Below, piece by piece: positions 11,118 through 59,628 of a stretch of 64,000 bases of DNA. The DNA lies in NCBI GenBank assembly GCA_964609095.1, contig CAZSQN010000002.1, positions 12,633 to 76,632 on the forward strand. The letters are read 5' to 3'. Source of the DNA: an uncultured Gammaproteobacteria bacterium. GTDB lineage: Bacteria; Patescibacteriota; Patescibacteriia; CAZSQN01. The position numbers and the translations under genes are program-made. The stretch's first letter is position 1, and every line of letters starts with the position of its first letter. A model generated the notes under the pieces. That model did not search any database, was not told the DNA's origin, and was given only the letters and a program-made list of their open reading frames with translations.

Positions 11118-11147
11118 ATCCCTCGAGTTTCCTCGAGGGTTATTTTT
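11118..11147. terminator. bidirectional terminator ATCCCTCGAG-tttc-CTCGAGGGTT + T run
   Basis: perfect 8-bp stem flanked by A-run and T-run between convergent genes. Confidence 0.65.
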
Positions 11148-11868: not shown

Positions 11869-11922
11869 CTCTTTCCTCCTCGCCCTGAACGAAGTTGAAG
11901 GGCTTGTTGCCGGGTTTATTGA

Positions 11923-12666
11923 TTATGGGAGTCTCGCGGAAAGCGTGTAATTACCTGACCAAACATCTGTCCAAATATTTTTTGGACCGTAAATACCGCA
12001 CCTCGCAGCAATCAAATATTGTCCGGTGGAGGTAAATGCATAGATAAGCGTGGCGTTGGTGCCAGATCCCGAATTCTCGTCCTCGGCGACCCGCCTTCCA
12101 TCTGGGGCATACAATTGAATAAAAGGATCAAGATTCACATCGGTGGACTTCATTCTAAAAACAACACGGTCGCCGACTCGGGCGTTAAACCGCCACCAAC
12201 CCCTTTCGGGATCAATTGTGGCTTGTTGGCGATAACCTTTTCTGGAATGAATTTGGCCGCGAACAACTTGTCCGAGGCGCAATTCGTCTTGCGCTTGCCT
12301 GTTTTGGCCGGCTGGCTGTTTGGCAACGGTTCTTGCCTGGCGCCGTTCCAATTCCGCGCTTACGGCAAATTGGATATCTTCCCGCAGAGTTGCTGAAATT
12401 CGGCGCGAAACGCGGTCAGAAGTTTGCGCAACAATAACAGCGCGGTCTTGATGTGTAAGCGTCTGAATCGCCTCTTGCCGCGCTGTCTTGTTTCCCGCTT
12501 CAAAAGCCGAGATACACAGAATCGCGCCAACAAGAAACAAAGCAACGCCAATCGGCCACTTCTTAACCAGAGCATAACGAGACATTATTCCATCATACTG
12601 CTCTCGCAGTTTCTCGTTCTCCGCCAAAAGCTTGGCAACCTCATCGTTTCTGTACGGTGCGTCCAT
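11923..12666 (-). CDS. membrane-anchored coiled-coil/PPC-like domain protein, paralog B2
   Basis: identical N-terminus to 11146..11868, with about 65 bp of near-identical DNA at 12604-12668 vs 11805-11870; C-terminal GDRVVFRM...GQYLIAARC...GNYTLSA. Confidence 0.6.
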   Translation of the reverse strand: MDAPYRNDEVAKLLAENEKLREQYDGIMSRYALVKKWPIGVALFLVGAILCISAFEAGNKTARQEAIQTLTHQDRAVIVAQTSDRVSRRISATLREDIQFAVSAELERRQARTVAKQPAGQNRQAQDELRLGQVVRGQIHSRKGYRQQATIDPERGWWRFNARVGDRVVFRMKSTDVNLDPFIQLYAPDGRRVAEDENSGSGTNATLIYAFTSTGQYLIAARCGIYGPKNIWTDVWSGNYTLSARLP

Positions 12667-12679
12667 CTCTTGCCTCCTT

Positions 12680-12892: not shown

Positions 12893-12960
12893 TAGTTTTT
12901 TCTCCTTTCAAAGAACGCCGCTACCGTACCAAAAACGGACGCGAGTGTCAAGGTTGGTTA

Positions 12961-13030
12961 AGCGTTTAGCGGTTAGCGTATAGCGTTTAGTTTTTACCCT
13001 AAACCCTAAATGCTAAACCCTATACCCTGC
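12961..13030. repeat. telomere-like intergenic element: (AGCGTTTAGCG)-type block then TTTTTACCCTAAACCCTAAATGCTAAACCCTATACCCTGC
   Basis: CCCTAAA heptamer units; same family as 4089-4152, 47716-47803, 60833-60907. Confidence 0.5.
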
Positions 13031-18097: not shown

Positions 18098-19435
18098 TTA
18101 AGGGATAAGCTTTCTTCTATGCGTTCGACGGTAGAAGGCAATCGCAAATCTGTGCGCTTCGTCGCGCACAGCCACTAAAATATCTTTAAATTGATTGGCA
18201 ACTCTGGCCATTTCCGGATTATCTTTAGGCAAAATAAGCTCATCCTTTTTCCTGTCTACGCCTTTGGCAATGCCAACAATAGGAATGCCCAGATGATATG
18301 CTTCCAATACTTTCTTAGCCGCGTTAACTTGCGGAACTCCCCCGTCAATTAAAATTATTTCCGGCAATTCCCAGCCGGCACCGCGATGGGCAAAACGCCG
18401 CGTTAGCACCTCGCGAAGCATGGCCGTATCATTAGCGCTTTTTACGGTTTTAATTCTGAATTTGCGGTATTGGGATTTATCCGGCTCCCCGCCCGAAAAT
18501 ACTACCATGCTTCCGACTGCAGAAGTTCCGGAAATATTGGAAATATCATAACCCTCAATGCGGCCGTAGATATTAATGATATTCGCTTCTCCGCCTGCGG
18601 CGGACCAACCGTAGGTTGGCGCATCTCTCGTCAGCGCGGAAATATCCCGTATATTCTCCAGGGCGTAAAGGCGATTTCTTATTTTTGCCGCGTCCTCAAA
18701 TCTTTCTTCTTTAACGGCTTTTGCCATTTCTTTTTTAAACCCGCGAATCACTTGTCCTTTTTTGCCTTCAAAAAATAAAATCAGCCCGCGGATATTTTTT
18801 TTATATTCTTTTGGGGAAATCGCGCCGACGCAGACCCCTGGGCATTTTTTAAGGTGATAATCAAAACATGGTTTAGAATTTAGAATTTGGAATTTGGAAT
18901 TTGGAATTTTTGGCGGTTCGCAATCGCTCCATGGGAAACTCTTGCGCAAGATATTCAAGGCGGCGCGGAGCGCGTTGGGGCTCAAAAACGGCCCGAAAAC
19001 ACGCTTGAATTTGGAATTTGGAATTTGGAATTTGTTTCGGATTTCGGATTTCGTGCTTCGGATTTGATGTAACTCGTGTCCTCTCATCAACAATAATTTC
19101 GGATATTTATCTTTTGTGATAACTAAGTAAATAAAGCTCCTGTCATCTTTTTGCAGCACATTATATTTGGGCCACAATTCTTTGATTTTTTCCGCTTCCA
19201 AAATTAAGGCCTCCACCACGGTTTTAACGCGGATATAATCAATTGACTTTATTTCTTTTATAAGCTCGTAAACTTTACCGTTTTGCGGACGAGAAAAGTA
19301 GCTGCCGACGCGCGTTCGGAGCATTGATGCCTTGCCAACGTAAATAACTTTGCCCGAACTGTCTTTCATCAGATAAACGCCCGGGCTTGCCGGCAAAATT
19401 GAATTTTTTATTTTGATGCTTTTGGGAATTGACAT
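18098..19435 (-). CDS. uvrC: excinuclease ABC subunit C, short form lacking the C-terminal (HhH)2 domain
   Basis: GIY-YIG GVYLMKDSSGKVIYVGKA; endonuclease-domain block LIDGGVPQVN...VRDEAHRFAIAF; protein ends about 20 aa after this; contains in-frame (GAATTTG)n and (TTCGGAT)n heptamer repeats encoding IPNSKFQILNSK. Confidence 0.85.
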   Translation of the reverse strand: MSIPKSIKIKNSILPASPGVYLMKDSSGKVIYVGKASMLRTRVGSYFSRPQNGKVYELIKEIKSIDYIRVKTVVEALILEAEKIKELWPKYNVLQKDDRSFIYLVITKDKYPKLLLMRGHELHQIRSTKSEIRNKFQIPNSKFKRVFGPFLSPNALRAALNILRKSFPWSDCEPPKIPNSKFQILNSKPCFDYHLKKCPGVCVGAISPKEYKKNIRGLILFFEGKKGQVIRGFKKEMAKAVKEERFEDAAKIRNRLYALENIRDISALTRDAPTYGWSAAGGEANIINIYGRIEGYDISNISGTSAVGSMVVFSGGEPDKSQYRKFRIKTVKSANDTAMLREVLTRRFAHRGAGWELPEIILIDGGVPQVNAAKKVLEAYHLGIPIVGIAKGVDRKKDELILPKDNPEMARVANQFKDILVAVRDEAHRFAIAFYRRTHRRKLIP

Positions 19436-25396: not shown

Positions 25397-25945
25397 CTAT
25401 TCTTCCTGTTGCACAGGAACGGCAAGGAATCTGTATTCCAAAGGAAATTCTTCCGTAAGGTCCCAAAGCTCAATAGCTCTTTCACCGCCGTGTCTGCTTA
25501 AAACCATGACATACGGATAGTTTCTCAGGTCCCGCCAATAAGTGCCCATGGCCACAATAGAAAGTTCCCTTAGGAGATACGGAGAGTGGTTGACAAAATT
25601 GAGAGTTTCCAGAGCAGTTGCCGGACGCAAACCAAGAAATCGCATCTCGTATTCCACTCGTTCTGCAGTAATCAAATTATCGCTTTCGTCACCAAAATGC
25701 ATAAGAATTACCTGATGTAGATCTTGCCTGCCTGTGGAAGGAGCTTGCACCACATCTTGGGAAGCGGTCATACGGATTCTATTATCAACCCTGCCATACA
25801 CAAGATTCTGAATCCGTTGGGAATAATTAACTTCCACATAAGCAAAAGTAGTGTAGTCTGCAGTGGTCCGAAGAGCGGTTCCGCCGCAAGAAACAATAGA
25901 AAAAGAAAACAGCAGCATCGCAAAAAAGAGTCTGAATTTGCTCAT
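25397..25945 (-). CDS. lipoprotein of unknown function, paralog family C
   Basis: signal peptide with lipobox-like SIVSCG; shares the AMGTYWRDLRNYPYVMV...RFLAV block with 27148..27666. Confidence 0.55.
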   Translation of the reverse strand: MSKFRLFFAMLLFSFSIVSCGGTALRTTADYTTFAYVEVNYSQRIQNLVYGRVDNRIRMTASQDVVQAPSTGRQDLHQVILMHFGDESDNLITAERVEYEMRFLGLRPATALETLNFVNHSPYLLRELSIVAMGTYWRDLRNYPYVMVLSRHGGERAIELWDLTEEFPLEYRFLAVPVQQEE

Positions 25946-26035
25946 TTTGCTTCTCCTTTGTTTAAAGGCCTGCAAAATTTATATCAAAACTTAATAAAAT
26001 AGTCAATTAAAAAAGGTATACTAAAAAGTTGATTT

Positions 26036-26127
26036 CCTATATAACGCACTATAGTGCGTTATATAAGCAGGTCGGTTTTTTAGTTATATTTTTAAGAAAT
26101 AAAAACCCCGAGTTTATTCGGGGTTGC
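26036..26127. repeat. duplicated intergenic module: perfect 28-bp palindrome TATATAACGCACTATAGTGCGTTATATA (26038-26065) plus terminator hairpin CCCCGAG-ttta-TTCGGGG
   Basis: about 92 bp nearly identical to 27048-27145; the palindrome sits about 65 bp upstream of the 25397..25945 start and the hairpin just 3' of 26143..26886. Confidence 0.6.
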
Positions 26128-26142
26128 GTTCCAAAGAACTAA

Positions 26143-26886
26143 CTAACGATGTCTTGCGGAAAGAGCGTATGAACCGAAATTTCTGTACTCATGATGCTGA
26201 TAACCGCAAAAAACAACATAAGTACCCGAGGATGAAAATGTATATTCTAACGAGATATAGGAACTATCCACAAACGAAGTATAAGCTAACCTTTGGTGAT
26301 TTTCTCTAAAGAGAGAAATATGCGGATAGAGGATCGAGCCCACGGTTGCCTGCATGCGAAAAACAACTCGTTCGCCTGCTTGCGCGTGAAACAAATACGA
26401 TTCCCCGTCTCCTCCGACAAGTCGTCCATAAATCACTTGATTCAAGGGAAGGACGGGCACGACCGGCGCTTTAGTCAAATCACGGCCTTCGGCCGACACA
26501 ACGGGTCGTGCTTGCGTCTCGACCAAACGCGAGGCCTCAAACTCTTCCCGCGCCTCACGGACGCCTTCGCGGTAGGCGGACATGACAATCTTTTCCTTGA
26601 GATAGACGGCTGATTGCCGGTCATGGGCAAGTCGAGGATTTCGGCTGATTTGCGCCACAACTTCGCGCGCAAAATCTTGCGAGTTTGGACCGCTGAAAAA
26701 CAACGGAGCGAAAAATGCGGCGCTTACCGAACCTACGACCAGAGAAATAAAAATTGTAAAGCCGAAACCATACTTCAGTGTTCCTCTGGCTTCTGCGTAC
26801 TTGGCAGCCAGATCAGCGCTATCCTTCTTCAGCTTTTCGTTTTCATCCACCAATTCCTGAATTCGCCCGTCTTCTCTGAAGACCAT
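26143..26886 (-). CDS. membrane-anchored coiled-coil/PPC-like domain protein, paralog B3
   Basis: start at MVFREDGRIQELVDENEKLKK with AAAGGAGGAAGTT SD; TM helix; C-terminal GERVVFRM...GTYVVFCG...GSYALSA. Confidence 0.55.
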   Translation of the reverse strand: MVFREDGRIQELVDENEKLKKDSADLAAKYAEARGTLKYGFGFTIFISLVVGSVSAAFFAPLFFSGPNSQDFAREVVAQISRNPRLAHDRQSAVYLKEKIVMSAYREGVREAREEFEASRLVETQARPVVSAEGRDLTKAPVVPVLPLNQVIYGRLVGGDGESYLFHAQAGERVVFRMQATVGSILYPHISLFRENHQRLAYTSFVDSSYISLEYTFSSSGTYVVFCGYQHHEYRNFGSYALSARHR

Positions 26887-27047
26887 AACTTCCTCCTTTG
26901 GTTGTTGAGTATTGGAAAAGAGCATCAAGACCGTATCATAAATTATGTATTTTTGTCAATACTATTCGCTCATACTATTCGCTCATTCGCGCGAATTAGA
27001 GCAAGTGCGGACTTTTATTCGTAGCACAATTAACCAAAAAGTTCATT

Positions 27048-27145
27048 GCTTATATAACGCACTATAGTGCGTTATATAAGCAGGTCGGTTTTTTAGTTAC
27101 TTTATATTTTTAAGAAATAAAAACCCCGATTTTATTCGGGGTCTT
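27048..27145. repeat. second copy of the palindrome (27051-27078) plus terminator module
   Basis: near-identical to 26036-26127; placed between 27148..27666 (3' end) and the promoter region of 26143..26886; an ATTCGCGCGAAT palindrome lies just before it at 26985-26996. Confidence 0.6.
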
Positions 27146-27147
27146 TT

Positions 27148-27666
27148 CTAATTTGCTTGATTGTCGGAAACTTTAATGGAAAGGAACCGCGCGTCAGACG
27201 GCAGCTTGTCCCAGGCAAACCACAGCCCAAGCCCCAAGCCGCCGGATGAACGGTAAACATAAGGCACGTAAGGATAGAATGTTCTGTTTTTCCAAACGGT
27301 TCCCACGGCGAATATCGGACTTTGAAAATTGCCGCGAAGATTTTCTCTGGAGTAAGCCAGAAGCTCATCCATATTCGCCGGACGGAATCCTCTCCGCCGC
27401 GTAAAATCAATGACGCTGTCTCTGTCCGCGGCGTCGGGAAATCGCAAAAGCGAGTATTCGGCAATCTGCGGCAAATCACTCCGCTGCCATCCTAAAATAT
27501 CGTAATCTTCCAGACCGTTGGGCAAATCGGAAAACAGCCCGTTTTGCATTTCTTCTCTTGCTTCGCGGGAATAGTCTACGGCAAGATGCTGTTGCGGCGC
27601 GATCTTTTCTTCGCTCCGGCCGCAAGATGCGCTCAAGACAAAAACCAACACCAGCTTTTTCATCAT
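27148..27666 (-). CDS. secreted/lipoprotein paralog of 25397..25945 (family C)
   Basis: signal peptide MMKKLVLVFVLSASCG; conserved AVGTVWKNRTFYPYVPYV...RFLSI block. Confidence 0.55.
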   Translation of the reverse strand: MMKKLVLVFVLSASCGRSEEKIAPQQHLAVDYSREAREEMQNGLFSDLPNGLEDYDILGWQRSDLPQIAEYSLLRFPDAADRDSVIDFTRRRGFRPANMDELLAYSRENLRGNFQSPIFAVGTVWKNRTFYPYVPYVYRSSGGLGLGLWFAWDKLPSDARFLSIKVSDNQAN

Positions 27667-28317: not shown

Positions 28318-29289
28318 ATGACGATTGACGTGAGCAGACAACCCAATCTAAAATATGCGTTCTTAGAACGTTGGGATGTAGACGGACACGAAGTGGCAAT
28401 GATGCTGATAGAGGGTCCAAACGACATCAAAAACAGGCACTTGCTTTGCGAGTGCGATTTTCCGGAGGACCCAAACAAGCCAATAGTTTTTGGCGGTCCC
28501 GGCGACCCGCACTCTTGTCCGGCTAAAAAGCATATTCGCGCGAAAGCGATGGTCCAAGCGTGCGATCGCTACAGACCCATTTGGAACAAAATGGTTACCA
28601 AAGATGCCGTCTTGGATATTTTTAACAGGATTAGAGGCGGCGAATATCTTGGCGAACACACGCCCGGGATTGTATATACGCAAGAAGTATCAATGCTTCT
28701 CTGTTTGGGACAAGAATCCGTAAGGAATGCTTGCGATGCGCTCTATGCCGAAGAAAAATTAGAGTTAAACGGCGCCATACTTTGCGAATTTGTTCCAAGA
28801 TTCAGGTTTCCGCTGGAGATGGAGCAGACCATCGCCTATGTGGTGGAAGAGCCGCTGGGCTGGCCAAATGGAGACGCGGGAATGTTCGCGCTTGCCGAAA
28901 TTGAAGGCGAAATAGAAGAACGAACCGGGTGCAAGAGCGGCAAAGCCGGCTTTGGCAAACACTTTCCGCGTATTGAAAGAAAAATCCTTCTGCCCGCTTT
29001 TGGCTGGCTTGCTTCAGAGCTTAATGCCGCGGCCAAAAGCAAACGAAAAAGAAGCCGGCTTCGCGCCTTATCCGCTGATGAAATCACTAAGGACTTCAAG
29101 TGGTTTCCGCTAAAGTATCCGGAAATTAAAGTTGAGTTCTACGCGGAATTTGTAAAAGCTCTTTTAAAAACAGTTTTTCAAAACATCCCGCTGGAGCGAT
29201 CAATGAACAAAAAATCGAGCGAGGCGAAGATACTGCGCTATTGGGCAGATTTCTTCTCTCGCCATACAAAGAGTTTCAAAAAGATGTAA
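28318..29289 (+). CDS. hypothetical protein
   Basis: 324 aa from the ATG with GAAAGGAGAAAAA SD; no recognisable motif; cysteine pairs CECDF and HSCP. Confidence 0.45.
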   Translation: MTIDVSRQPNLKYAFLERWDVDGHEVAMMLIEGPNDIKNRHLLCECDFPEDPNKPIVFGGPGDPHSCPAKKHIRAKAMVQACDRYRPIWNKMVTKDAVLDIFNRIRGGEYLGEHTPGIVYTQEVSMLLCLGQESVRNACDALYAEEKLELNGAILCEFVPRFRFPLEMEQTIAYVVEEPLGWPNGDAGMFALAEIEGEIEERTGCKSGKAGFGKHFPRIERKILLPAFGWLASELNAAAKSKRKRSRLRALSADEITKDFKWFPLKYPEIKVEFYAEFVKALLKTVFQNIPLERSMNKKSSEAKILRYWADFFSRHTKSFKKM

Positions 29290-29346
29290 CCCTGCTGCAA
29301 AGCAGGGTTTTTTGCTGACGCGTGTCAGCATCCCGCTATCTTTGCG

Positions 29347-29820
29347 CTATTTAAATGGATAGCGGGATATTATTTTCACAACCGCTTTCGGCGCCATGTT
29401 TTGCCACGGTTTCCCGGCGCGCATAGCGGCGCGGATTTTGGTCGCGGAAATCTTCCTACCCTTTTCTTTTATTTTTAAAAACTTCACGCCGGTATCTTTT
29501 AGACATCGCGCCACCCAAGGATTTCCCGTTATGACCATATCGGGATTTTTCGTCAGTTCAAGAAATTTCTTTGTCCAAAGTTTATCGCCTTTTGTGTCAG
29601 GCATAGCAACAATACGGACATTTTTTATCCGCGCGTCTTTTAGCGCGGCGCGAATCATCTTCTTGCGCAAATTTGCCGGAAACGGATTTTCTCCGCTTTT
29701 CCTGTTGGTGCTTCCGATTAAAATGATGAGCCGATACTTGCGGCTCATTTTTTTAACAACGGCAAGATGCCCTTTATGAAAGGGCTGAAAGCGACCGATG
29801 AAAACCGCTCTCATCTTCAT
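29347..29820 (-). CDS. cytidylyltransferase-fold nucleotidyltransferase, NMN adenylyltransferase (NadM)-like
   Basis: FIGRFQPFHKGHL (HxGH motif) and ISATKIR motif; 158 aa. Confidence 0.65.
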   Translation of the reverse strand: MKMRAVFIGRFQPFHKGHLAVVKKMSRKYRLIILIGSTNRKSGENPFPANLRKKMIRAALKDARIKNVRIVAMPDTKGDKLWTKKFLELTKNPDMVITGNPWVARCLKDTGVKFLKIKEKGRKISATKIRAAMRAGKPWQNMAPKAVVKIISRYPFK

Positions 29821-34981: not shown

Positions 34982-35072
34982 ATACGGATGATCGGTTAAA
35001 AAATAATTTATAAAACCTTTTTGCGCAAACTGCGCAAATCTAAAATTTTTCTTATTCTACCATTCGCGCGAA

Positions 35073-35333
35073 TTAGAGCAGGTTAATGATCTGCTTGGCT
35101 TCCGGCTTGAGATTCGGAGCCAAACTATAAAACATCTGCAAACTCCTCTGCTCTTTCTCCAGAATATCAGCACCGGCCAAAATCCTCAAATGCTTTGAAG
35201 TTGCTTTAAAAGAAAGTCTAATCGCTTCCGCTGCTTCAGATACCGGCGCTTCTTTATGAGATTTAATATACTTAAGTATCGCCAGCCTGCGGTGATTGGC
35301 CAAAGCCTTTAGAGTTTTTTCAATCTTTTTCAT
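35073..35333 (-). CDS. ArsR/SmtB-family winged-helix transcriptional regulator
   Basis: 86 aa; LANHRRLAILKYI...VSEAAEAIRLSFKATSKHLRIL HTH; flanked on both sides by ATTCGCGCGAAT palindromes (35062-35073 and 35391-35402). Confidence 0.65.
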   Translation of the reverse strand: MKKIEKTLKALANHRRLAILKYIKSHKEAPVSEAAEAIRLSFKATSKHLRILAGADILEKEQRSLQMFYSLAPNLKPEAKQIINLL

Positions 35334-35471
35334 AAGTTTATTTAAAATAAGACTTAATCCATTCTAAAAAGAGCATAACACTATTCTACCATTCGCGCGA
35401 ATTAGAGCAGAGAGAGTGTGGGCGTGCGGTTGCAGAGAGGCAAGAAATCTCTTATAATAAGGCATTAATAT

Positions 35472-35966
35472 ATGCAGGTACCAAAAAGAAAACCGGGGAA
35501 ATTCGCCCATCTCAAAGCCGACCAGAATATTACTGAAGAGAAGTTTGAAGAGCTTAAAGCCGAACTGGAACGGCTTAAGAAATTCAGCTTGCCAGCCGCG
35601 GCCGAAGAAGTCGCGACTCTCGCGCAAATGGGCGACTTTTCCGAAAACGCCGCTTACCAGATGGCCAAAGGCCGGCTCCGCGGAATAAACCAACGGATTT
35701 TGGAATTGGAAGACCGGATAAAATACGCGGTAATAATCAAGCCGTCAAAAAACGCCCAGACCGTCGGGCTTGGGCATAAAGTAACTATTGAATCAGGAGG
35801 AGAGTCAAAAACTTATCTAATACTCGGCTCGGCGGAAACAGACCCCTTAAAAGGAATTATTTCCCAAAACTCCCCATTGGGCTCCGCCCTTATGGGCCGC
35901 AAACTCGGCGACAAAATAAAAATCCCGCCAAAAGGAGTGGAGTGGAAGATTTTGAAGATAGAATAA
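35472..35966 (+). CDS. greA: transcription elongation factor GreA
   Basis: 164 aa; GDFSENAAYQMAKGRLRGINQRILELED; the last 60 bp are duplicated at 36905-36966 beyond an inserted island. Confidence 0.9.
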   Translation: MQVPKRKPGKFAHLKADQNITEEKFEELKAELERLKKFSLPAAAEEVATLAQMGDFSENAAYQMAKGRLRGINQRILELEDRIKYAVIIKPSKNAQTVGLGHKVTIESGGESKTYLILGSAETDPLKGIISQNSPLGSALMGRKLGDKIKIPPKGVEWKILKIE

Positions 35967-35995
35967 ATTCAAATCGCAACTATTCTACCATTCGC

Positions 35996-36034
35996 ACGCC
36001 TGCCCCGTAGTGAGCTGCGCTCTACTACTGGGGA
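35996..36034. repeat. 38-nt near-palindromic hairpin element (left copy) inserted into a copy of the CTATTCTACCATTCGCGCGAATTAGAGCAG unit
   Basis: ACGCCTGCCCCGTAGTGAGCTGCGCTCTACTACTGGGG; an inverted partner at 36737-36775 flanks the NUDIX gene. Confidence 0.5.
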
Positions 36035-36051
36035 ATTAGAGCAGGTGGGAA

Positions 36052-36648
36052 TTAAATTTCTATATTTTCTAAAATATATTTTAACGGATAAACAATGTCG
36101 TTTCTGGTCTTTATTTCCTCCGGCTTTAACCAACGGAAACTACTGGCTTCGTCATTTAATCGCAAATTTTCTTTTTCCGAATTAATCTTCACCAAATACA
36201 AATGCCATAAATGGTGATCGCTCCCCCTACGGCACGAATCGCCGGGCAGATGAAATTCTTTCACAAATTTAAAATCTTCTTTTGGCAATTCCAAACCTAT
36301 TTCTTCCATTAATTCTCTCCGCACCGCAATAAGCGCGTCTTCTCCCTTATCAACATGGCCGGCGGGCAAGGCGTAAGCAAAAGGGAAAGTCGCGCGCATG
36401 ACTACAAGCCATTCGCCTTTTTCGTTTAAAATAATAGCTCCGGTACTTTCATGCCAATAATTCTTGTCTTCATCTATCCACCAATTTACAGCGTTATCAA
36501 TAACCAAAGACCTTTCTTCCGTGGCGCCGCAGCTCTTGCAAAAATAATAAGTCTTTCCGTCTTTAAAAACTCTTTCCACTTTTGCGGAATTGCACTTTAG
36601 GCAATATTGCCCTTCTATTTTTATATCTATATTTGAATTTATTTTCAT
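36052..36648 (-). CDS. NUDIX hydrolase with N-terminal CxxC-x16-CxxC zinc ribbon
   Basis: Nudix box GHVDKGEDALIAVRRELMEEIGLEL; N-terminal CLKCNS...CKSCGA; carried on an inserted, IR-flanked segment. Confidence 0.75.
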   Translation of the reverse strand: MKINSNIDIKIEGQYCLKCNSAKVERVFKDGKTYYFCKSCGATEERSLVIDNAVNWWIDEDKNYWHESTGAIILNEKGEWLVVMRATFPFAYALPAGHVDKGEDALIAVRRELMEEIGLELPKEDFKFVKEFHLPGDSCRRGSDHHLWHLYLVKINSEKENLRLNDEASSFRWLKPEEIKTRNDIVYPLKYILENIEI

Positions 36649-36736
36649 AAAAAAACCATATTACGCTACTCCTGTTTAGAATAAACATAACATGGTTAGG
36701 TCAATTTCTACAAAACTTTTACTCTATTCTCTTATT

Positions 36737-36775
36737 CCCCAGCAGTAGAAGCTTTGCTTCACTACGGGGCAGGCG
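36737..36775. repeat. right inverted copy of the 38-nt hairpin element
   Basis: CCCCAGCAGTAGAAGCTTTGCTTCACTACGGGGCAGGCG; its reverse complement matches 35996-36034 at both arms, with a diverged centre. Confidence 0.5.
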
Positions 36776-36904
36776 CGCGAATAAGGAGTACAGTTTAAGG
36801 TTATAAACCTTAGTCTTATTCGTACGAATTTGACTAGGGTTAGATTGACTGTCTCTTAGTCGTGCGATTAAGAGAGTAGTTGGAATTGGAAATCGGGCAG
36901 GCAC

Positions 36905-36992
36905 CTCGGCGACACAATAAAAATCCCACCCAAAAAGGGGTGGAGTGGAAGATAGTGAGGATAGAATAAATGCTCCACGTGGAGCATTTTTT
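36905..36992 (+). pseudogene. displaced duplicate of the greA 3' end plus its rho-independent terminator
   Basis: GGCGACACAATAAAAATCCCACCCAAAAAGGGGTGGAGTGGAAGATAGTGAGGATAGAATAAA is about 85% identical to greA 35905-35966, followed by the hairpin ATGCTCCACGTGGAGCAT + T6; flanked by the TAGTCTTATTCGTACGAA inverted repeat at 36811-36829 and 37014-37031. Confidence 0.55.
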
Positions 36993-37043
36993 AAAACACT
37001 ATTCTCTTAAGAACCTTTCGTACGAATAAGACTATAATTTTAA

Positions 37044-37778
37044 TTATTTTAACGCTTGCTGAATTCGTTTAAATCCGTTTCTGCTTATGTTATTTTGTGA
37101 TAAAACCGGCGATCTACTCTTTAAAATTATGATATTTTTATAAGTTTTTAATTCTTTTACTTTCTCAAACCATTGACCCTTCTTCATTATTACTATTAAA
37201 GCTTTACGACTAATTGCCTGTCTAACTAAACCAAAATTATATTTTTGACACTCCAGTATTTTACCTAAAGGCCTATAATTTCTAGAATGGTAAGGAAAAA
37301 ATTCTATACAACAAATCTTTTTTGAAATATTCTTATAGTCTTCTTTATTTTTAATAAAATGTTGCCAAACCTTTAGCCAATATCTAAACCCGCCGTATAA
37401 TCTATAAGCGGGATTTAAGTCATAAAACGAATATTCTAATTCTTCGCGCAAATTATTTTTAAGTATATCTTTTTTTAATTTGGGATAAACTTTCAAAGCA
37501 TGATCCTCTTCATCTTCAAATCCTGGAGGAACATCAGAACCCGGGTTTAACTGTAATAAAATAATCTTTGTATTAAATGGATTACCCTGAAAAGGAACAG
37601 GCAAACTATTGGTATCTATTTTGTGTTCCGGCCTACGCTTTTCTTTTTCATTAATATCATCAATAATCTTCTTATCTTCATCTAATAAATAAGGCGGCGA
37701 TTTACGATTAAATTTTCTCCACGGATTTATCTTATTTAATCTTTCTTCCATATTGCTTTGGAAAATACTCTTTTCCAA
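37044..37778 (-). CDS. hypothetical protein, island gene P1 (AT-rich, no recognisable family)
   Basis: 244 aa; conserved-looking blocks LPVPFQGNPFNTKIILLQLNPG and CCIEFFPYHSRNYRP; overlaps P2 by 47 bp. Confidence 0.5.
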   Translation of the reverse strand: MEKSIFQSNMEERLNKINPWRKFNRKSPPYLLDEDKKIIDDINEKEKRRPEHKIDTNSLPVPFQGNPFNTKIILLQLNPGSDVPPGFEDEEDHALKVYPKLKKDILKNNLREELEYSFYDLNPAYRLYGGFRYWLKVWQHFIKNKEDYKNISKKICCIEFFPYHSRNYRPLGKILECQKYNFGLVRQAISRKALIVIMKKGQWFEKVKELKTYKNIIILKSRSPVLSQNNISRNGFKRIQQALK

Positions 37779-38346
37779 CCTGCCATAAATATTTATCTAT
37801 CTGTTTTAAATCAAATGATTCTAAATCATAATGTTTTCTAAAATTAGACAGAATATCTTTAAATTTTGAGTATATTTTCAAATCCTCGTTATCAAAATCA
37901 AACTCCTTTTCTTTACAATGAATGAGCATTTTTGCTACAAATGAGTCATAAATTGGATACTCTGTTGGATTATGGTGGCTACAATATTTTGTTGCAAATG
38001 AATACAAATGTGATTCTTTAGCTTTTTTGCTTATATGAATTTTATGACCGGATGCAATTTTCTCAACTAAATCAAGATTGTTATTTCTCAAATCGTTATC
38101 AATATTCAAACTCACAATATGTTTAGCTAAAACAAATATTTTGCGAATTTGTGTACTATAAAATTGGTTCAAGGTGCAAACTTTGACTAAGACATCGTCT
38201 AAATCAGTGTTAAATGGATATGTTTTTGTAAACAATTTTTTTAAGCTACTCTCTTGCAAACTATAATCATCGAAAGTTTCCCATGCCTTGAGATAATGTT
38301 CAACTTCTTTCAACGATGGTTTTGGTATATTTAAATTTTTTGACAT
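37732..38346 (-). CDS. hypothetical protein, island gene P2 (AT-rich, no recognisable family)
   Basis: 204 aa; strongly AT-biased codons unlike flanking genes; possibly translationally coupled to P1. Confidence 0.5.
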   Translation of the reverse strand: MSKNLNIPKPSLKEVEHYLKAWETFDDYSLQESSLKKLFTKTYPFNTDLDDVLVKVCTLNQFYSTQIRKIFVLAKHIVSLNIDNDLRNNNLDLVEKIASGHKIHISKKAKESHLYSFATKYCSHHNPTEYPIYDSFVAKMLIHCKEKEFDFDNEDLKIYSKFKDILSNFRKHYDLESFDLKQIDKYLWQVGKEYFPKQYGRKIK

Positions 38347-38413: not shown

Positions 38414-39406
38414 CTACGCCAACAATTGCGTTACCAGCGCCACCATTTGTTCTTTTTTCTTGGGGTCGCTCTCGGCAATAAGCAGCGTGAGCGCGGTCAA
38501 GCATGCCGGATTAATATTGCGAATGCCTTTGGCGCGGTATCTACGCAAAAACCAGACAAAAGCAAAAGCGCCGGAGCGTTTGTTGCCGTCCGTAAACGGA
38601 TGATTCTTGACCATGAAGTAGAGTAGATGCGCGGCTTTCTCTTCCACGCTCCCGTAAAGCTGCCGACCGCCAAACGATTGCATCACATTTCCGGCAATAC
38701 CCTCAATGCTCCCCTCTTTCCTTTCCTGTGCAAACAAATCCGCGGCCTCGCCTTTCTTCATAAGCTCGGCTCGCAAATTCTGTATGGCGCGAGCCAATTC
38801 TTCGCCGGTAAGCTTAATTGCTTTTTTAGTTCTGCCGATTACTTTAAGCTCTTCTTTGTCATACGCGTTAAGCGAAATCCACGTGCTCGCGAATTCTTTA
38901 ATCAGTTCCAGGACGGCTTTAGGGTCAAGCGTAATGTGTTCAGGCAGGAGCGTCTGAATATCGGCAACCGCTTTCATAAACGCGTCGTAATTTTGAGCGA
39001 TGCGTTTGCGATTTATGGTATAGCCCTTGGTAATATGCCCGCGCAAAGTTTTGGTGGCCCACTGGCGAAAATTGGTGGCTGTTTTGGAGTTGATACGATA
39101 CCCAACCGAAATAATGGCATCAAGATTATAATAATCCACTTGATACATCTTTCCGTCAGCGGCAGTTGTTGCAATTTTTGCAACAACTGAATCTCTGCTT
39201 AATTCGCCCTCTTTAAAAATATTTTTTAAATGACGAGAGATAACCGATTTATCACGTCCAAAAACTTCGGCGATTTGGTCAAGTGTTGCCAAAATACTTT
39301 CACGCTCAAAATCGCCCCGAAGCTCAATAGCTCCGGAAGGCGCTTGATAAATTATCATCTGCTTGTCTTGTTTTTTATCTTTCATAAATCCACTCAATCT
39401 TACCAA
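38414..39406 (-). CDS. RhuM-family N-terminal domain fused to a Fic/Doc (FIDO) domain protein
   Basis: Fic motif HPFTDGNKRSGAF; N-terminal YQVDYYNLDAIISVGYRINSKTATNFRQWATKTL resembles RhuM-family proteins. Confidence 0.75.
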   Translation of the reverse strand: MVRLSGFMKDKKQDKQMIIYQAPSGAIELRGDFERESILATLDQIAEVFGRDKSVISRHLKNIFKEGELSRDSVVAKIATTAADGKMYQVDYYNLDAIISVGYRINSKTATNFRQWATKTLRGHITKGYTINRKRIAQNYDAFMKAVADIQTLLPEHITLDPKAVLELIKEFASTWISLNAYDKEELKVIGRTKKAIKLTGEELARAIQNLRAELMKKGEAADLFAQERKEGSIEGIAGNVMQSFGGRQLYGSVEEKAAHLLYFMVKNHPFTDGNKRSGAFAFVWFLRRYRAKGIRNINPACLTALTLLIAESDPKKKEQMVALVTQLLA

Positions 39407-42114: not shown

Positions 42115-42218
42115 ATCCAAAAACGCTCCGAATACAATCGGAGCATTTTTATTTGCCCGCTCGATGCGGGCATCCCGCTAACTTTGCGTCATATAAGTGA
42201 ATAGCGGGATTTACATTT

Positions 42219-47714: not shown

Positions 47715-47715
47715 T

Positions 47716-55058: not shown

Positions 55059-55161
55059 AAACATAAAAAATATTAGCAAAAAATGTTTATTTAATCAAGA
55101 AAAGATAAAAAAACCAAGGCAAATGCCTTGGTCTGTTTTTCTCTGAAAAAATGAACCGTTC

Positions 55162-56925: not shown

Positions 56926-58062
56926 CTAAATTCCATTAACCCTTGCAGATTTTAATTTATCAGCAATTTGTCGCCATATTGTTTCTCTTAATCTTCGTCC
57001 TAAACAATAATTGTCTCCGTACTTTAAAAGTCCAAAGTATGACTGCGCTGACTGGCGGAAACTTTCGTCGGATATTTCGCCGTTCTGATACGATTCAATG
57101 TGCCGCCGCATAACGCAAAATATCCGTTTTTTTGTTTTCAACCGCAGAGTCCGATAATGTGGCCGAAACGCTTGTCCCACAAAATCAATGCCGTAAGAAA
57201 GTTTCCTGATTGAAACTTTCTTTGGGTGGAGTTCTAAACCGCGCTCTTCCAACAGATATCGCCGTATCTGAAAAAGCGTGTCTTCCAACACTGCGGGACT
57301 TCTATGTAAAATAATAAAATCATCGCAAAAACGAACATACCAACGCATACCAAGTTTTTCTTTCACAAAATGGTCTAATCCGTTAAGATAAATATTTGCG
57401 AAAAGCTGGCTGGTCGCATTGCCGAGCGGAAGTCCGCATCCGGGCTTTTCATTGGCGCAATAACTCTGTAAGATTTCTTTAATCAGCCATATAATATTTT
57501 CATCTGATATTTTTCGTCTTATAATATCCAACAGAATATCCTGCCGCACCGAATCAAAAAACTTGCGGATATCGCATTTGAGCGCGTAAACGACAAAATG
57601 ATAATTCGCGGTTGCTTGCCGGAAAAACTTTTCAAGACGGAGCACAGCCGCGTGCGTGCCTTTATCTTTTCTGGACGAATATGAGTCAAAAATAAACTGC
57701 GGTTCAAATATCGGCTCTATAATCTGAACAACAGCCTGATGCGCCACTCTATCTCGCACTATTGCTTTGCTGATATACCTGCGCTTGGGATCATTAACAA
57801 AAAAATGTTCATAAGAACCATGATAATAGGTTTTATTTAAGAGGATTTCGTGAAGCGAAAAGATGTTATTTTCCAAATCGCGCGCAAATGCCAAAACATC
57901 CGTATTGTTCATTTTGCCTTGTTTAAACTTTTCCCAAGCATTATAAAGATTTTCTAACGAGATAACTTGTTCAAAAATGTTATGACCTTGAATTACCCCC
58001 CCCCGAAGGAATTTGACAGATGGCTCACCGGCTTTGCCGGTGAAGAGTTTGGATTGGTCCAT
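56926..58062 (-). CDS. diversity-generating retroelement (DGR) reverse transcriptase
   Basis: RT motifs KCDIRKFFDSV, GLPLGNATSQLFANIYL (the DGR-type [ILV]GxxxSQ rather than group II QGxxxSP), VRFCDDFIIL and GLELHPKKV; start placed at MDQSKLF because the further 5' ORF extension is antisense to avd and low-complexity; adjacent TR/VR pair. Confidence 0.85.
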   Translation of the reverse strand: MDQSKLFTGKAGEPSVKFLRGGVIQGHNIFEQVISLENLYNAWEKFKQGKMNNTDVLAFARDLENNIFSLHEILLNKTYYHGSYEHFFVNDPKRRYISKAIVRDRVAHQAVVQIIEPIFEPQFIFDSYSSRKDKGTHAAVLRLEKFFRQATANYHFVVYALKCDIRKFFDSVRQDILLDIIRRKISDENIIWLIKEILQSYCANEKPGCGLPLGNATSQLFANIYLNGLDHFVKEKLGMRWYVRFCDDFIILHRSPAVLEDTLFQIRRYLLEERGLELHPKKVSIRKLSYGIDFVGQAFRPHYRTLRLKTKKRIFCVMRRHIESYQNGEISDESFRQSAQSYFGLLKYGDNYCLGRRLRETIWRQIADKLKSARVNGI

Positions 58063-58398
58063 AAACTTTACGAATTTTATAAGCTCATACATCAGGATAC
58101 CGCAAAATTTCCCAAAACAGAAAGACATACATTGGCTGAAACCATAAAATCCAAAACGCTTAAACTTATTGACGGCGTCTGGGAAGCCAATTCGCTCCCT
58201 TTGCCCGAACGCCTCGTTTTGCTGGAACGGCTGCAAAGAACGCTTGATCTTGTTAAATTGCTCATTCGCCTCATCCGCGACTTGGGCATCTATCAACTTA
58301 AAGGATATATCTATCGCGAAGCTCGACTCCAAGAAATCGGCAAAATGTTAGGTGTGTGGAAAAAAAATACGCGCAAACGGCTCGGTTTAGACCCATAA
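57982..58398 (+). CDS. avd: Avd-like four-helix-bundle accessory variability determinant (23S rRNA IVS-protein family)
   Basis: KLYEFYKLIHQDTAKFPKTERHTLAETIKSKTLKLIDGVWEA and LDLVKLLIRLIRDLGIY parallel the IVS/Avd consensus (FPKxER...L..QI...IAEG ... IRLGYL); on the strand opposite to RT, overlapping its 5' end by about 80 bp; a C9 homopolymer lies in the overlap. Confidence 0.6.
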   Translation: MTLNYPPPKEFDRWLTGFAGEEFGLVHKLYEFYKLIHQDTAKFPKTERHTLAETIKSKTLKLIDGVWEANSLPLPERLVLLERLQRTLDLVKLLIRLIRDLGIYQLKGYIYREARLQEIGKMLGVWKKNTRKRLGLDP

Positions 58399-58430: not shown

Positions 58431-58443
58431 CTTCTTGAATTGC

Positions 58444-58560
58444 TTCCGCGCACCGCCCGCCTTCGTTGTCATATGGGTTCGCGAGATCATCGTCATTTCA
58501 CCTGTTCACGTTGACCCTGCCATTGTACTCGTTCGCATTCAAGGCGTTAGGCCCGAAACG
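58444..58560 (-). other. DGR template repeat (TR)
   Basis: 117 bp homologous to 58915-59031; every one of about 20 differences is an adenine on the minus strand of this copy versus a non-adenine in the other; in the target reading frame it encodes AAC/AAT-rich RFGPNALNANEYNGRVNVNR*NDDDLANPYDNEGGRCAE with an internal TGA; 3' end shares a GC-rich block GGCGGGCGGTGCGCGGAAG with the VR. Confidence 0.8.
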
Positions 58561-58899: not shown

Positions 58900-59628
58900 T
58901 TACATCTTGACCACTTCCGCGCACCGCCCGCCAGCGCAGTCATATGGGTACGCGAGAGCATCGTCATCCCACCTGCCCACGCAGACCCTGCCAATGGACT
59001 CGTTCGCACGCAAGGCGCCAGGCCCGAAACGGGTGCGGAGCCAAGACCAAGTTCTATTATCAAGCATGACGCTGGTTGCGGCTTTGTGAACCCACCAGAC
59101 AAGCGCATACTCTTCCAGCGAAAGCAAGTTCAATCTTTGCTCTTTGGTGAGTTTATTCCAGCTCGTGCCCAAGCGAGGACACTCTTGGGCAACTTCGGCC
59201 CAGAACCAGTAACCGGTTTGGGCTGGTTCCCAGACGATTTTCTTCCTGTCGCTCTCGTCCACGACAGTCCAGTGTTCGTCCTGGCCAACGGCCTTCATCA
59301 AGGCCTCGTAGGAGACCTCTGAGGTTGGAGGGCGATAGAACAGGTCTTGATTCATGGCCTGGCGCCTCTTGTACTCTTCATCTGGAACAGGAGGAACTGG
59401 TATTTGAAGGGAAAAACCAAGCTTGTAGTACCAGTCCATGAACCAGTTGCGGCGATTCGTGGCAAAGTCGCCGGAGGCAAAGGTTTTTGCGCCTTCCTGC
59501 TCCCTGCTCTTTGAGAGGTTCAAAACCGCTTCCTGGATCTGCTCGGCCGTTAGACCAAGCGAGATACCGAATTGCACCAGCTGAACAGGGGTGAGAGGAA
59601 CTGCCGCGGGGGTACGATATGCGGACAT
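58900..59628 (-). CDS. DGR target (variable) protein, VR at C-terminus (58915-59031)
   Basis: 242 aa; C-terminal ...RFGPGALRANESIGRVCVGRWDDDALAYPYDCAGGRCAEVVKM aligns codon-for-codon with the TR, with substitutions only at TR AAC/AAT/GAA/TGA adenines (N to G, N to R, Y to S, N to I, N to C, N to G, * to W, D to A, N to Y, N to C, E to A). Confidence 0.75.
   Translation of the reverse strand: MSAYRTPAAVPLTPVQLVQFGISLGLTAEQIQEAVLNLSKSREQEGAKTFASGDFATNRRNWFMDWYYKLGFSLQIPVPPVPDEEYKRRQAMNQDLFYRPPTSEVSYEALMKAVGQDEHWTVVDESDRKKIVWEPAQTGYWFWAEVAQECPRLGTSWNKLTKEQRLNLLSLEEYALVWWVHKAATSVMLDNRTWSWLRTRFGPGALRANESIGRVCVGRWDDDALAYPYDCAGGRCAEVVKM
58915..59031 (-). repeat. DGR variable repeat (VR)
   Basis: see the TR entry; adenine-specific mismatch pattern; the 19-bp GC-rich IMH-like block is at the 3' end (58915-58933). 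Confidence 0.8.

Follow-up and report, generated by a model that had tools for sequence, protein, structure and literature searches.

A duplicated perfect palindrome between surface-protein genes of a Candidatus Uhrbacteria genome: a possible terminator-adjacent hairpin repeat

A perfect 28-bp palindrome, TATATAACGCACTATAGTGCGTTATATA, occurs exactly twice in the window (the whole 64,000-nucleotide stretch of DNA analyzed here, from a Candidatus Uhrbacteria genome), at 26038-26065 and 27051-27078, as a preliminary description had recorded; the two copies are referred to as W1 and W2. Both lie between genes of a surface-protein cluster, in near-identical modules that start at an intrinsic terminator. 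Our preferred reading, held tentatively, is that the palindromes belong to a lineage-specific, terminator-adjacent hairpin repeat, which may act both as a transcription-unit boundary and as a recombination substrate. Rather than switching a promoter, the palindrome probably forms a hairpin that serves as a boundary element. Coordinates of the features discussed are collected in Table 1.

Table 1. Features of the palindrome locus and of related elements, in window coordinates
Feature	Position	Strand	Remarks
Gene C'	25397..25945	-	Lipoprotein-like paralog of C, 27% amino-acid identity
Likely C' promoter (sigma-70 type)	25978..26006	-	TTGACT, 17 nt, TATAAA; 31 nt from palindrome edge
W1 extended imperfect palindrome, ~69 nt	26018..26086	-	Outer arms TAACTAAAAA / TTTTTAGT
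W1 core	26038..26065	.	Hybrid outer arms: type A (TGCT) on terminator side, type B (GGAA) on promoter side
B3 intrinsic terminator	26099..26125	-	AACCCCGAATAAACTCGGGGTT plus T-tract; 5' end of module W1 on gene-sense strand
Gene B3	26143..26886	-	Membrane-anchored orphan, flanked by both palindromes
Likely B3 promoter	26930..26959	-	TTGACA, 18 nt, TACGGT preceded by TG; outside the repeat
"ext," promoter-side extension of W2	26985..27030	-	~92% conserved after copy R1 in relative R
W2 extended imperfect palindrome, ~69 nt	27031..27099	-
W2	27047..27082	.	Perfect 36-bp palindrome, 28-bp core 27051-27078, type A arms on both sides
Terminator after C	27114..27146	-	Near-identical copy of B3 terminator; 5' end of module W2
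Gene C	27148..27666	-	Lipoprotein-like orphan; 70% identical to L049 ortholog
323-aa orphan	28318..29289	+	Predicted winged-helix domain; divergent from operon ending in C
Two-hairpin element (hp1 + hp2)	29309..29373	+	Starts at T-tract of the 323-aa gene's terminator
Two-hairpin element	42150..42215	+	Starts at T-tract of Q_salvage gene terminator (gene 41131-42114, +)

The 28-mer appeared in 0 of 100 dinucleotide-preserving shuffles (0 expected by chance), and no third match with up to 3 mismatches was found in the window. W1 and W2 are the longest perfect palindromes there; the runner-up has 22 bp (36968-36989). Several further local duplications are present in the window. The preliminary description had proposed a search for further copies; this gave no further copy and no half-sites in the window together with ~34 kb more of source-genome DNA (~98 kb), and none in the public collections that were scanned. 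An assembly artefact can be dismissed, since independent assemblies span the palindrome with unique flanks on both sides: NCBI MAG contig JACOZF010000008.1 (L044) matches the window with 0 mismatches over 20.7 kb, and a JGI contig and an ENA contig span it in a related organism. A search of 185,579 species genomes with ATAACGCAC-N4-GTGCGTTAT returned 43 matches, all of them either terminator-type hairpins with no relation to the palindrome or members of another repeat family, found in one Acetivibrionales MAG. A few matches in CPR genomes have long perfect palindromes around the same 9-mers, in gene contexts with no common feature, and were treated as chance plus a general enrichment of hairpins. 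The core search gave no viral matches, and no meaningful phage or plasmid matches.

The modules had been put at ~95 bp; they are indeed near-identical (~95%) but slightly longer, spanning 26020-26124 (105 nt) and 27033-27142 (110 nt), and align as a 67-nt block with 94% identity and a 41-nt block with 98%, separated by a 5-nt indel. On the minus strand, which carries all three flanking genes, each module runs from the T-tract of the upstream gene's terminator through an AT-rich spacer and the ~69-nt imperfect palindrome to a promoter-like end. The terminator hairpin previously noted in each module was recovered by the terminator scan, which listed terminator-like hairpins with a minus-strand T-tract at 26125..26104 and 27146..27119. 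This terminator is native to the 3' end of B3 in three organisms, being kept after B3 in the relatives R and L049; the C ortholog of L049 has a different terminator. Counting two copies in relative R (R1 and R2, below), four copies are known, and all begin at an intrinsic-terminator T-tract. They have the spacer RTTTYYTAAAAATMTAACT in common, even R2, which follows a different terminator hairpin after a deaminase gene. The full repeat unit measures ~105-150 bp, and the perfect palindromic core 28-38 bp across copies.

The center of the palindrome is TATA, with perfect symmetry through it; in W1 the outer arms are set off from the core by 6-8-nt internal loops. On either strand, the modules are predicted to fold with -38 to -46 kcal/mol (z-scores relative to shuffles, -6.6 to -8.6). 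With its A-run and T-run outer arms, the ~69-nt palindrome resembles the bidirectional terminators built from an A-tract, a hairpin and a T-tract. Unlike these, however, it has an AT-rich stem base, its T-run starts 6 nt beyond the perfect stem on both strands, and a canonical terminator already lies just upstream. The palindrome does not qualify as an intrinsic terminator, unlike the neighboring 8-bp GC hairpins; the terminator scan listed W2 only under a relaxed stem rule.

The coordinates reported earlier for C, B3 and C' were correct, as was the placement of the dyad between genes of the cluster. Gene C matched no Pfam, NCBIfam or PHROG family, and a paralog of B3 at 11923-12666 has a weak match to the PPC domain. 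The proposal that the module was copied along with an expansion of paralogs did not hold, however. C and C' are far more diverged (27% identity) than the modules (~95%), so the near-identical repeats must have arisen long after the paralogs; C and B3 are not paralogs of each other; L049 has the same C-B3 order with a plain spacer; and the module's terminator is native to the B3 3' end.

B3 and C' each have their own promoter and terminator. The C' promoter was read from the sequence, as the scan demanded T at position 6 of the second hexamer and so missed the site; it is kept in relatives R and S2, and the B3 promoter is kept in L049 and L050. The gap between the palindrome and the C' promoter is 21 nt in R and 31 nt in W1, owing to a 10-nt insertion in W1 at 26010-26019; the difference to the -35 between W1 and R2 is thus exactly 10 bp, and helical phase is retained. 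Relative to the likely starts, as given by promoters inferred from sequence, the palindrome center lies at about -80 (W1) or -70 (R2) for C', at about -142 for B3 (W2), and at roughly -155 for the relative's deaminase gene (R1). The extension "ext" contains CTACGAATAAAAGTCCGCAC (27024..27005) and CTCTAATTCGCGCGAAT (27001..26985) and shows homology to the region of the C' promoter, interrupted by a 12-nt gap between its -35-like and -10-like parts.

The closer relative R (L057), whose B3 is 76% identical, also has two copies, around a different gene: between R1, a perfect 38-bp palindrome, and R2 lie a deaminase-like gene and the final 27 codons of a C-type gene. W1, W2 and R1 have the same 28-bp core without any difference, and R2 has one uncompensated core mismatch. 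Between the window and R, the left, terminator-side flank and the B3 coding DNA are ~80-82% identical (70% at third codon positions), and the promoter-side flank, including the C' promoter, is ~92-95% conserved; C' itself is only 36% identical between two organisms with a ~95% identical spacer. The outer arms come in two symmetric types, TTGCT..AGCAA and TTTCC..GGAAA. Their two differing positions are compensated (T:A to C:G and G:C to T:A), a covariation that is not significant with 4 sequences, as 122 of 500 shuffles reach the observed values. The terminator-side flank variants are genome specific, ATTTCTT..AACCGACC in W1 and W2 and GTTTTCT in R1 and R2; being common to both copies of a genome, they point to recent copying or gene conversion. 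W1 joins the left flank and type A arm of R1 to the right flank and type B arm of R2, and such a combination of the relative's two arm types suggests that copies have recombined with each other. Together with the differing intervening genes, it forms the pattern that would be expected of recombinational deletion or insertion between copies.

In L049, the more distant relative with the same C-B3 order, the C-B3 spacer holds a plain terminator and promoter only; in S2 (L060), the intact palindrome is missing from the B3-C' spacer, and C' and its promoter are kept. In the spacers of S1 (L050) there is another kind of hairpin, along with the beginning of a two-hairpin element, and upstream of B3 this genome has, at the equivalent position, a terminator-looking palindrome of A-tract, GC hairpin and T-tract. 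S2 carries CTAACTTT|GCGTTATATAAG, and R2 has both pieces 20 nt apart, the 20 nt mirroring the arm. Judged from these sequences, the palindrome unit is dispensable and young.

In S2, two tandem two-hairpin elements occupy the palindrome's place, and one of them has TGCGTTATATAAG in its loop, identical to the palindrome arm at 13/13 positions. Two elements of this kind are found in the window, both between convergent genes, so that no promoter is present there. At 29309..29373 the hp2 loop holds a diverged arm motif, and the element overlaps the last 7 codons of a CTP_transf-like gene; at 42150..42215 the loop, ACTTTGCGTCATATAAGTGAA, matches the arm at 12/13 positions. In hp1, 4/6 pairs show compensatory changes, and on the given strand the elements show covariation together with one G-U-compatible change. 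A covariance model of the two-hairpin element found no additional copies and did not match the palindrome modules.

Several of these observations favor the boundary reading. All four copies start at a terminator T-tract with a shared spacer, and the distance to the next functional promoter varies. The predicted fold is stable and the outer arms are compensated, the copies are homogenized within each genome with W1 as a hybrid, and a related two-hairpin element occurs at the same spot in S2 and after other terminators. The palindrome is also missing from the spacers of relatives. We propose that a hairpin or cruciform next to the terminator would delimit neighboring transcription units and insulate them from each other, its core sequence probably being read by some protein. 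Local duplication and gene conversion would propagate the unit and keep its copies uniform within the locus, where they could serve as recombination substrates that reshuffle surface-protein genes. Formation of the hairpin or cruciform would then be the property under selection, and boundary or insulator action its presumed role.

Other observations count against this reading. The core is invariant and shows no compensated change, which fits a protein-binding site at least as well, and a perfect TATA center is more than an RNA hairpin needs. The palindrome lies downstream of an apparently competent terminator and so may rarely be transcribed; it is not a canonical terminator, the arm covariation is not significant, and the core mismatch of R2 is uncompensated. 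The promoter-side flank, including the C' promoter, is conserved as well, so that palindrome and promoter could form a single regulatory block. Finally, there are only 2 copies in ~98 kb, compared with dispersed REP or MITE families.

The likeness to such families is nevertheless informative. The REP and BIME elements of Enterobacteria and Pseudomonas are likewise short extragenic palindromes at gene 3' ends or between genes, often right behind a terminator or serving as one, with homogenization within the genome, use as a recombination substrate, and a sequence-conserved core readable by a protein. REP sequences are imperfect, 20-40 nt long and dispersed in tens to hundreds of copies, with a GTAG-type head and RAYT transposases. 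Here, in contrast, there are 2 copies in ~98 kb, each a perfect 28-38-bp dyad with no GTAG-type head, and the scanned genes gave no Y1_Tnp match and no RAYT gene. The MITE-like ERIC/IRU, Correia, RUP and BOX repeats are also similar, being 70-150-bp imperfect intergenic palindromes with promoter- or terminator-like parts and variable presence in relatives. Unlike these, our repeat has no bounded terminal inverted repeats, no target-site duplication or other sign of transposition, and no dispersed copies in the DNA scanned; its edges coincide instead with the terminator and promoter.

A second possibility, which we consider doubtful but take seriously, is that the dyad is an operator or upstream activating site, bound by a symmetric transcription factor dimer or tetramer that co-regulates the surface-protein genes of the cluster. 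The regulated genes would be B3, C' and, in the relative, the gene now between the copies, and the repeat would be a duplicated control region. Long dyad operators include the 28-bp IR1 of QacR, bound by a dimer of dimers, and the 12-2-12 sites of ArsR/SmtB repressors; operators of the QacR and ArsR types overlap the promoter or lie directly beside it, usually with the regulator gene as a neighbor. The palindrome resembles such sites in its length and perfect symmetry, in half-sites that are AT-rich outside and GC-rich inside, and in the presence of copies upstream of several cluster genes. The dyad is perfect, including the center (36 bp in W2, 38 bp in R1), and the core is identical across two species in which terminator-side flank and coding DNA are only ~80-82% identical. 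The repeat includes the promoter-side flank up to the C' -35 and -10 (92-95% conserved), the W1 and R2 centers at about -80 and -70 are in phase, their gaps to the -35 differing by 10 bp, and every copy is confined to the one gene cluster.

Against an operator, the site lies 70-155 nt upstream and is missing from relatives that keep the genes and promoters. The two copies other than W1 and R2 are ~142 and roughly 155 nt from functional promoters, with an "ext" of their own that has a 12-nt gap between its promoter-like parts. Upstream of orthologs, the dyad is absent from L049 at B3, replaced by a different hairpin in L050, and represented by one arm only in S2, which retains C' and its promoter. 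Hairpin loops located between convergent genes contain the 13-nt arm as well, and symmetric, compensated arm differences are unexpected if the site is read only as duplex. The dimeric-operator proposal of the preliminary description therefore retains its perfect dyad but is weakened by the variable promoter distance, by the S2 promoter that lacks a palindrome, and by the arm in convergent intergenic hairpins. Membership in a longer repeat family without bias to promoters, the finding that the same description had named as speaking against its proposal, applies in part. The check for a helix-turn-helix regulator did yield two genes near the palindrome, neither of them tied to it. One, 1.2 kb away, encodes the 323-aa orphan, whose predicted winged-helix domain makes it a candidate DNA-binding protein; it was set aside as the palindrome's regulator, as its family shows no link to this cluster and a homolog sits in an unrelated context with no such cluster or palindrome. 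The other is an ArsR-family gene 8 kb away, which has its own, different dyad, ATTCGCGCGAAT.

An unlikely alternative is that the palindrome is a functionless by-product, formed by an inverted duplication in a preexisting hairpin element followed by local segmental duplication, with conservation that is only apparent and stems from recent gene conversion or exchange between close strains. Its presence or absence varies among close relatives, the flank variants are genome specific and common to both copies, and the junction CTAACTTT|GCGTTATATAAG in S2, set against the same pieces plus the 20-nt arm mirror in R2, is what such an event might leave; the further local duplications in the window fit as well. 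However, 0 substitutions in 28 bp, in three copies from two species with a background of ~18-20%, would be improbable under neutrality (0.82^28 ~0.004). Each arm type is also internally symmetric, and long perfect palindromes are otherwise absent from ~98 kb of the genome.

It is improbable that the palindrome is a small RNA or a cis-acting RNA element, with the hairpin expressed alone or within a 5' or 3' untranslated region. The hairpin is predicted to fold very stably and the two-hairpin elements covary, with one G-U-compatible change, but no convincing promoter/terminator pair surrounds the hairpin on either strand. No Rfam family matched: over 25900-27200 only generic hairpin matches below the gathering threshold were obtained, and in the window only 4 tRNAs reached it. 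A small ORF of 16 codons at the palindrome edge in W2 and R1 was rejected as not conserved in a protein-like way; of its 5 changes a single one is synonymous, and W1 and R2 lack it.

Least probable is a site for site-specific recombination, in which the 11-6-11 core (TATATAACGCA CTATAG TGCGTTATATA) would be a recombinase crossover site and B3, or the relative's deaminase gene, a cassette inserted, excised or inverted in the manner of integron attC sites or Xer/dif modules. In both organisms single genes lie between the copies; W1 combines exactly the left half of R1 with the right half of R2, changing from one to the other within the core; and relatives differ in the genes that the copies enclose. 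The core is palindromic, so that the copies are simultaneously direct and inverted repeats. Like attC and the pdif sites of Acinetobacter, these are palindromic sites 3' of single-gene units, with hybrid sites and variable gene content. There is, however, no recombinase, integrase or transposase, and no attI, among the scanned genes (assembly-called genes and ORFs of 110 aa or longer, in the window and most fetched flanks, apart from a few genes at 16.2-20 kb). Homology between the copies reaches well beyond the core, by ~60 nt on its left and ~35 nt on its right, which is sufficient for standard homologous recombination; each gene has a promoter and a terminator of its own; and no R''/R' core sites, that is, no RYYYAAC/GTTRRRY pair, are present, the nearest sequence, GTTGATT in W1, failing the consensus and not being kept in W2. 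A dif/Xer site was rejected likewise, as the arms are unlike the dif consensus as generally known and two copies lie 1 kb apart, and GC skew is negative and monotonic with no switch across the window, which argues against a terminus. It is equally improbable that the core is the crossover site of an undescribed CPR cassette-shuffling system with its recombinase encoded elsewhere in the genome. In such a system, single surface-protein genes, and occasionally a deaminase-like housekeeping gene, would be swapped between post-terminator palindromic sites, and the terminator-adjacent two-hairpin elements would be an ancestral or alternative form of the site.

Other known classes were considered and rejected. 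An origin or terminus is not consistent with the monotonic skew. An inverton around B3 was dismissed, as B3 has its own conserved promoter inside the segment, so that inversion would not switch it, and no invertase was found among the scanned genes. The module is not the TR/VR pair of a diversity-generating retroelement, being noncoding with differences that are not adenine specific; a genuine retroelement of this type is present elsewhere in the window. CIRCE, the NrdR box, parS and DNA uptake sequences, and a T7/SP6-type promoter (suggested by the shared CACTATAG), all compared as generally known, do not fit in spacing or copy number. The neighboring genes include uvrA and uvrB, and the palindrome does not lie upstream of these uvr genes, as a LexA/SOS box would; a passage in PMC7739468 places Patescibacteria among the lineages whose LexA motif is a direct repeat instead of a palindrome.

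CPR bacteria such as Uhrbacteria have tiny genomes, few recognizable regulators, and fast-evolving surface proteins that are thought to mediate host attachment. The locus described here combines conserved palindromic spacer units with highly divergent surface-protein genes and clear traces of recombination. Being restricted to one narrow lineage, the finding is of modest general importance. If the boundary or insulator hairpin is correct, it would add a REP-like class of element to CPR genomes; were the palindrome an operator instead, the genes for host interaction would form a regulon defined by it.

The window contains two copies, W1 and W2, of a perfect 28-bp palindrome, TATATAACGCACTATAGTGCGTTATATA, each within a near-identical module that also holds a terminator hairpin; the coordinates and symmetry in the preliminary description are confirmed, and the modules are indeed duplicated but slightly longer than the ~95 bp proposed there. 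The feature is real and non-random. No third match was found in the window at up to 3 mismatches, no match appeared in any of 100 shuffled sequences, and W1 and W2 are the longest perfect palindromes of the window (the runner-up is 22 bp). A 5-nt indel splits the alignment of the two modules into blocks of 67 nt (94% identity) and 41 nt (98% identity). On the gene-sense strand, each starts with an intrinsic terminator, ACCCCGAATAAA(A/C)TCGGGG plus a T-tract, followed by an AT-rich spacer and an imperfect palindrome of ~69 nt, in which 6- to 8-nt internal loops lie between the outer arms (TAACTAAAAA and TTTTTRGTTA) and the perfect core. On either strand, the module is predicted to fold with an energy of -38 to -46 kcal/mol and z-scores of -6.6 to -8.6.

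Positions of the palindrome modules, their gene neighbors, and other features (window coordinates unless a contig is named)
Feature	Position	Strand	Remarks
Palindrome W1	26038-26065		
Palindrome W2	27051-27078		perfect over 36 bp, 27047-27082
Repeat modules	26020-26124; 27033-27142	- (gene sense)	
C (lipoprotein-like)	27666..27148	-	
B3 (membrane-anchored orphan)	26886..26143	-	
C' (lipoprotein-like)	25945..25397	-	followed by uvrB, uvrA
Likely C' promoter	26006..25978	-	TTGACT, 17 nt, TATAAA; 31 nt from palindrome edge
Likely B3 promoter	26959..26930	-	TTGACA, 18 nt, TG-extended TACGGT; kept in two relatives
C' 5' UTR hairpin	25938-25976; L057 1953-1993; L060 244-284	- (window)	predicted
Two-hairpin elements	42150-42215; 29309-29373; L060 83-149, 138-203; L050 919-950	+ (window)	each starts at a terminator T-tract
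UvrA fragment of R	L057 2590-2689		
ArsR/SmtB-family gene	35333..35073	-	
29-nt repeats TATTCTACCATTCGCGCGAATTAGAGCAG	35053-35081; 35382-35410		identical, flank ArsR/SmtB gene
Third ATTCGCGCGAAT motif	26985-27001		in "ext"
86-nt repeat	11795-11880; 12593-12678		5' ends of tandem B-type paralogs (11146-11868, 11923-12666)
Diversity-generating retroelement	56926-59628	-	reverse transcriptase 58332..56926; TR 58560..58443; VR 59031..58914; target gene 59628..58900
7-nt-period arrays	4103-4152; 9745-9784; 12954-13028; 18869-19053; 47714-47795; 48461-48511; 49488-49531; 50399-50435; 60827-60905		
Low-GC segment and RhuM/Fic-domain gene beside it	36000-38000; 38414-39406		
58-nt repeat pair	35911-35968; 36914-36971		79% identical
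22-bp perfect palindrome	36968-36989		
51-nt exact direct repeat	54813-54863; 54952-55002		139 nt apart; overlaps tRNA-Lys gene (54985-55059, -)

The likely promoters of C' and B3 sit beyond the palindrome on the gene-sense strand, and their positions therefore place the palindrome centers at about -80 (C') and -142 (B3). In the C' 5' UTR, a predicted hairpin pairs CCUUU with the Shine-Dalgarno sequence AAAGG; its outer stem carries a compensatory double change (TTTTGC/GCAAAA in the window, TTCCGC/GCGGGA in relative R), and the hairpin, with modest predicted energies of -7 to -12 kcal/mol, may exert translational control.

C and C' are only 27% identical at the protein level, and B3 is unrelated to both, whereas the modules are ~95% identical and hence much younger than the paralogs; the proposal that the module was copied along with the paralog expansion is thus not supported as stated. 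In a more distant relative, L049 (B3 54% and C 70% identical to the window), the gene order from FtsH to B3 is kept, and the C-B3 spacer, 100 bp long, consists of another terminator plus the conserved B3 promoter and lacks the palindrome. The terminator found inside the module lies 3' of B3 in L049, L047/L057, and the window alike, next to conserved last B3 codons; it is therefore native to B3, and the copy after C is secondary. The tandem B-type paralogs, also surface-protein genes, share the 86-nt repeat at 94% identity, a further case of recent local duplication or conversion.

One metagenome scan yielded just one related locus, L047, and the neighboring gene led to L057, a longer contig from that organism; together they represent relative R. 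Here B3 (76% amino acid identity) is followed by the same terminator and spacer, a palindrome copy R1 that is a perfect 38-mer, and the promoter-side extension found after W2 ("ext"). Next come a YunG/dCMP-deaminase-like gene and, in frame with it, the final 27 codons of a C-type gene. Beyond a different terminator and the same spacer lies the second copy, R2, in which one mismatch is uncompensated; the C' promoter then leads into a C'-type gene that shares only 36% identity with C' of the window. In the window genome, the homolog of the deaminase-like gene is on a separate contig, flanked by the enolase and iPGM genes; the palindrome is absent there. Where the window carries uvrB followed by full-length uvrA, R has, directly 3' of the C' terminator, a fragment coding for the C-terminal portion of UvrA, which reflects either rearrangement or a chimeric assembly.

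Alignment of the four copies shows no difference among W1, W2, and R1 in the 28-bp core. Between the window and R, B3 coding DNA is 80% identical (70% at third positions), and identity of the terminator-side flank is ~82%; the promoter-side flank is ~95% identical between W1 and R2, C' promoter included, and W2 and R1 are ~92% identical across "ext," which is homologous to the C' promoter region but with a 12-nt gap. Variants of the terminator-side flank are genome specific, being common to both copies within each genome, which points to copying or gene conversion within each lineage. The outer arms are of type A (TTGCT..AGCAA; R1 and W2) or type B (TTTCC..GGAAA; R2); the two differing positions are compensated on both arms, which with four sequences is not significant (122 of 500 shuffles reach the same). 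W1 is a hybrid, combining on the left a type A arm with a flank orthologous to R1 and on the right a type B arm with a flank orthologous to R2, as would be expected if recombination within or near the core had deleted (or, in R, inserted) the inter-copy segment.

Another relative, S2 (L060; C' 77% identical), has in its B3-C' spacer a different terminator, two tandem two-hairpin units, and the conserved C' promoter. In the second unit, the loop carries TGCGTTATATAAG, a 13/13 match to the palindrome arm, and CTAACTTT precedes it there as in R2. The first hairpin of this element has a 6-bp stem with a TCGAT loop and compensatory changes in 4/6 pairs; the second has a ATCCCGCTA/TAGCGGGAT stem and a conserved 21-nt loop, ACTTTGCGTYATATAAGTGAR. 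Both window copies have the terminator on the same strand and lie between convergent genes, with no promoter following; that at 29309 supplies the last 7 codons of a convergent CTP_transf-like gene. A covariance model found no further elements in ~98 kb and did not match the palindrome modules. The element has no Rfam family match and is undescribed. The palindrome module appears related to, or derived from, this terminator-adjacent family; most likely the loop motif was duplicated in inverted orientation or, the other way round, S2 lost one arm.

A 12-bp dyad, ATTCGCGCGAAT, is at the center of each 29-nt repeat flanking the ArsR/SmtB gene, with a TG-extended -10-like TAGAAT beside it; this dyad, distinct from the 28-bp palindrome, is probably the ArsR-type operator. 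A third copy, conserved in R as ATTCACGCGAAT, precedes the B3 promoter, so that B3 may respond to the ArsR/SmtB regulator. A predicted winged-helix orphan of 323 aa has a homolog (41% identical) in an unrelated context, which gives no link between this protein and the palindrome.

The window also holds a classic diversity-generating retroelement, with bAvd among the assembly gene calls; its VR is at the 3' end of the target gene, and all 18 mismatches of the 118-nt TR/VR repeat (18/18) fall at TR adenines. Short 7-nt-period tandem arrays (with units such as GGGTTTA, AGCTTWT, GAATTTG, and AGCGKWT), sometimes facing inverted, occupy many intergenic regions. A low-GC segment (34% versus ~48%) beside a RhuM/Fic-domain gene is possibly acquired DNA, and the 51-nt repeat at tRNA-Lys may stem from partial duplication of the tRNA or be an integration scar. 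A replication origin or terminus was rejected, since GC skew is monotonic across the window.

The sequences establish the anatomy, the comparisons, and the evolutionary pattern, and all that concerns function is inferred; tentatively, we favor a terminator-adjacent hairpin or cruciform repeat. This is favored by the T-tract junction in every copy with variable promoter distance, by kin hairpin elements where promoters are absent, and by compensated arm differences, within-genome flank homogenization, and presence or absence among close relatives. The main rival, an operator or upstream activating site, draws real weight from the invariant core, perfect center, conserved promoter-side flank, and 10-bp phased spacing at C'. 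The dimeric-regulator operator originally suggested is thus a serious, though less probable, reading. That the repeat is a neutral by-product seems improbable. An RNA gene or element, for which the strong predicted fold might speak, is very unlikely; the palindrome region has no Rfam match. Least credible is a dedicated recombination site: no recombinase, integrase, or transposase was found in a scan that, a few genes at 16.2-20 kb apart, took in assembly-called genes and ORFs of 110 aa or longer from the window and most fetched flanks.

The window matches GCA_016181485.1, a MAG labeled Candidatus Uhrbacteria bacterium (CPR/Patescibacteria), and L044 shows 0 mismatches to it across 20.7 kb. 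In the remainder of the window and ~34 kb more source-genome DNA, no additional copy of the palindrome, half-site, "ext," or module terminator is present, and scans of species genomes, viral sequences, and phage and plasmid collections gave no true relatives. The palindrome repeat is new and narrowly distributed, and belongs to the broad class of extragenic palindromic repeats; as a hairpin or cruciform, it would mark the boundary of a transcription unit and might fuel local recombination.
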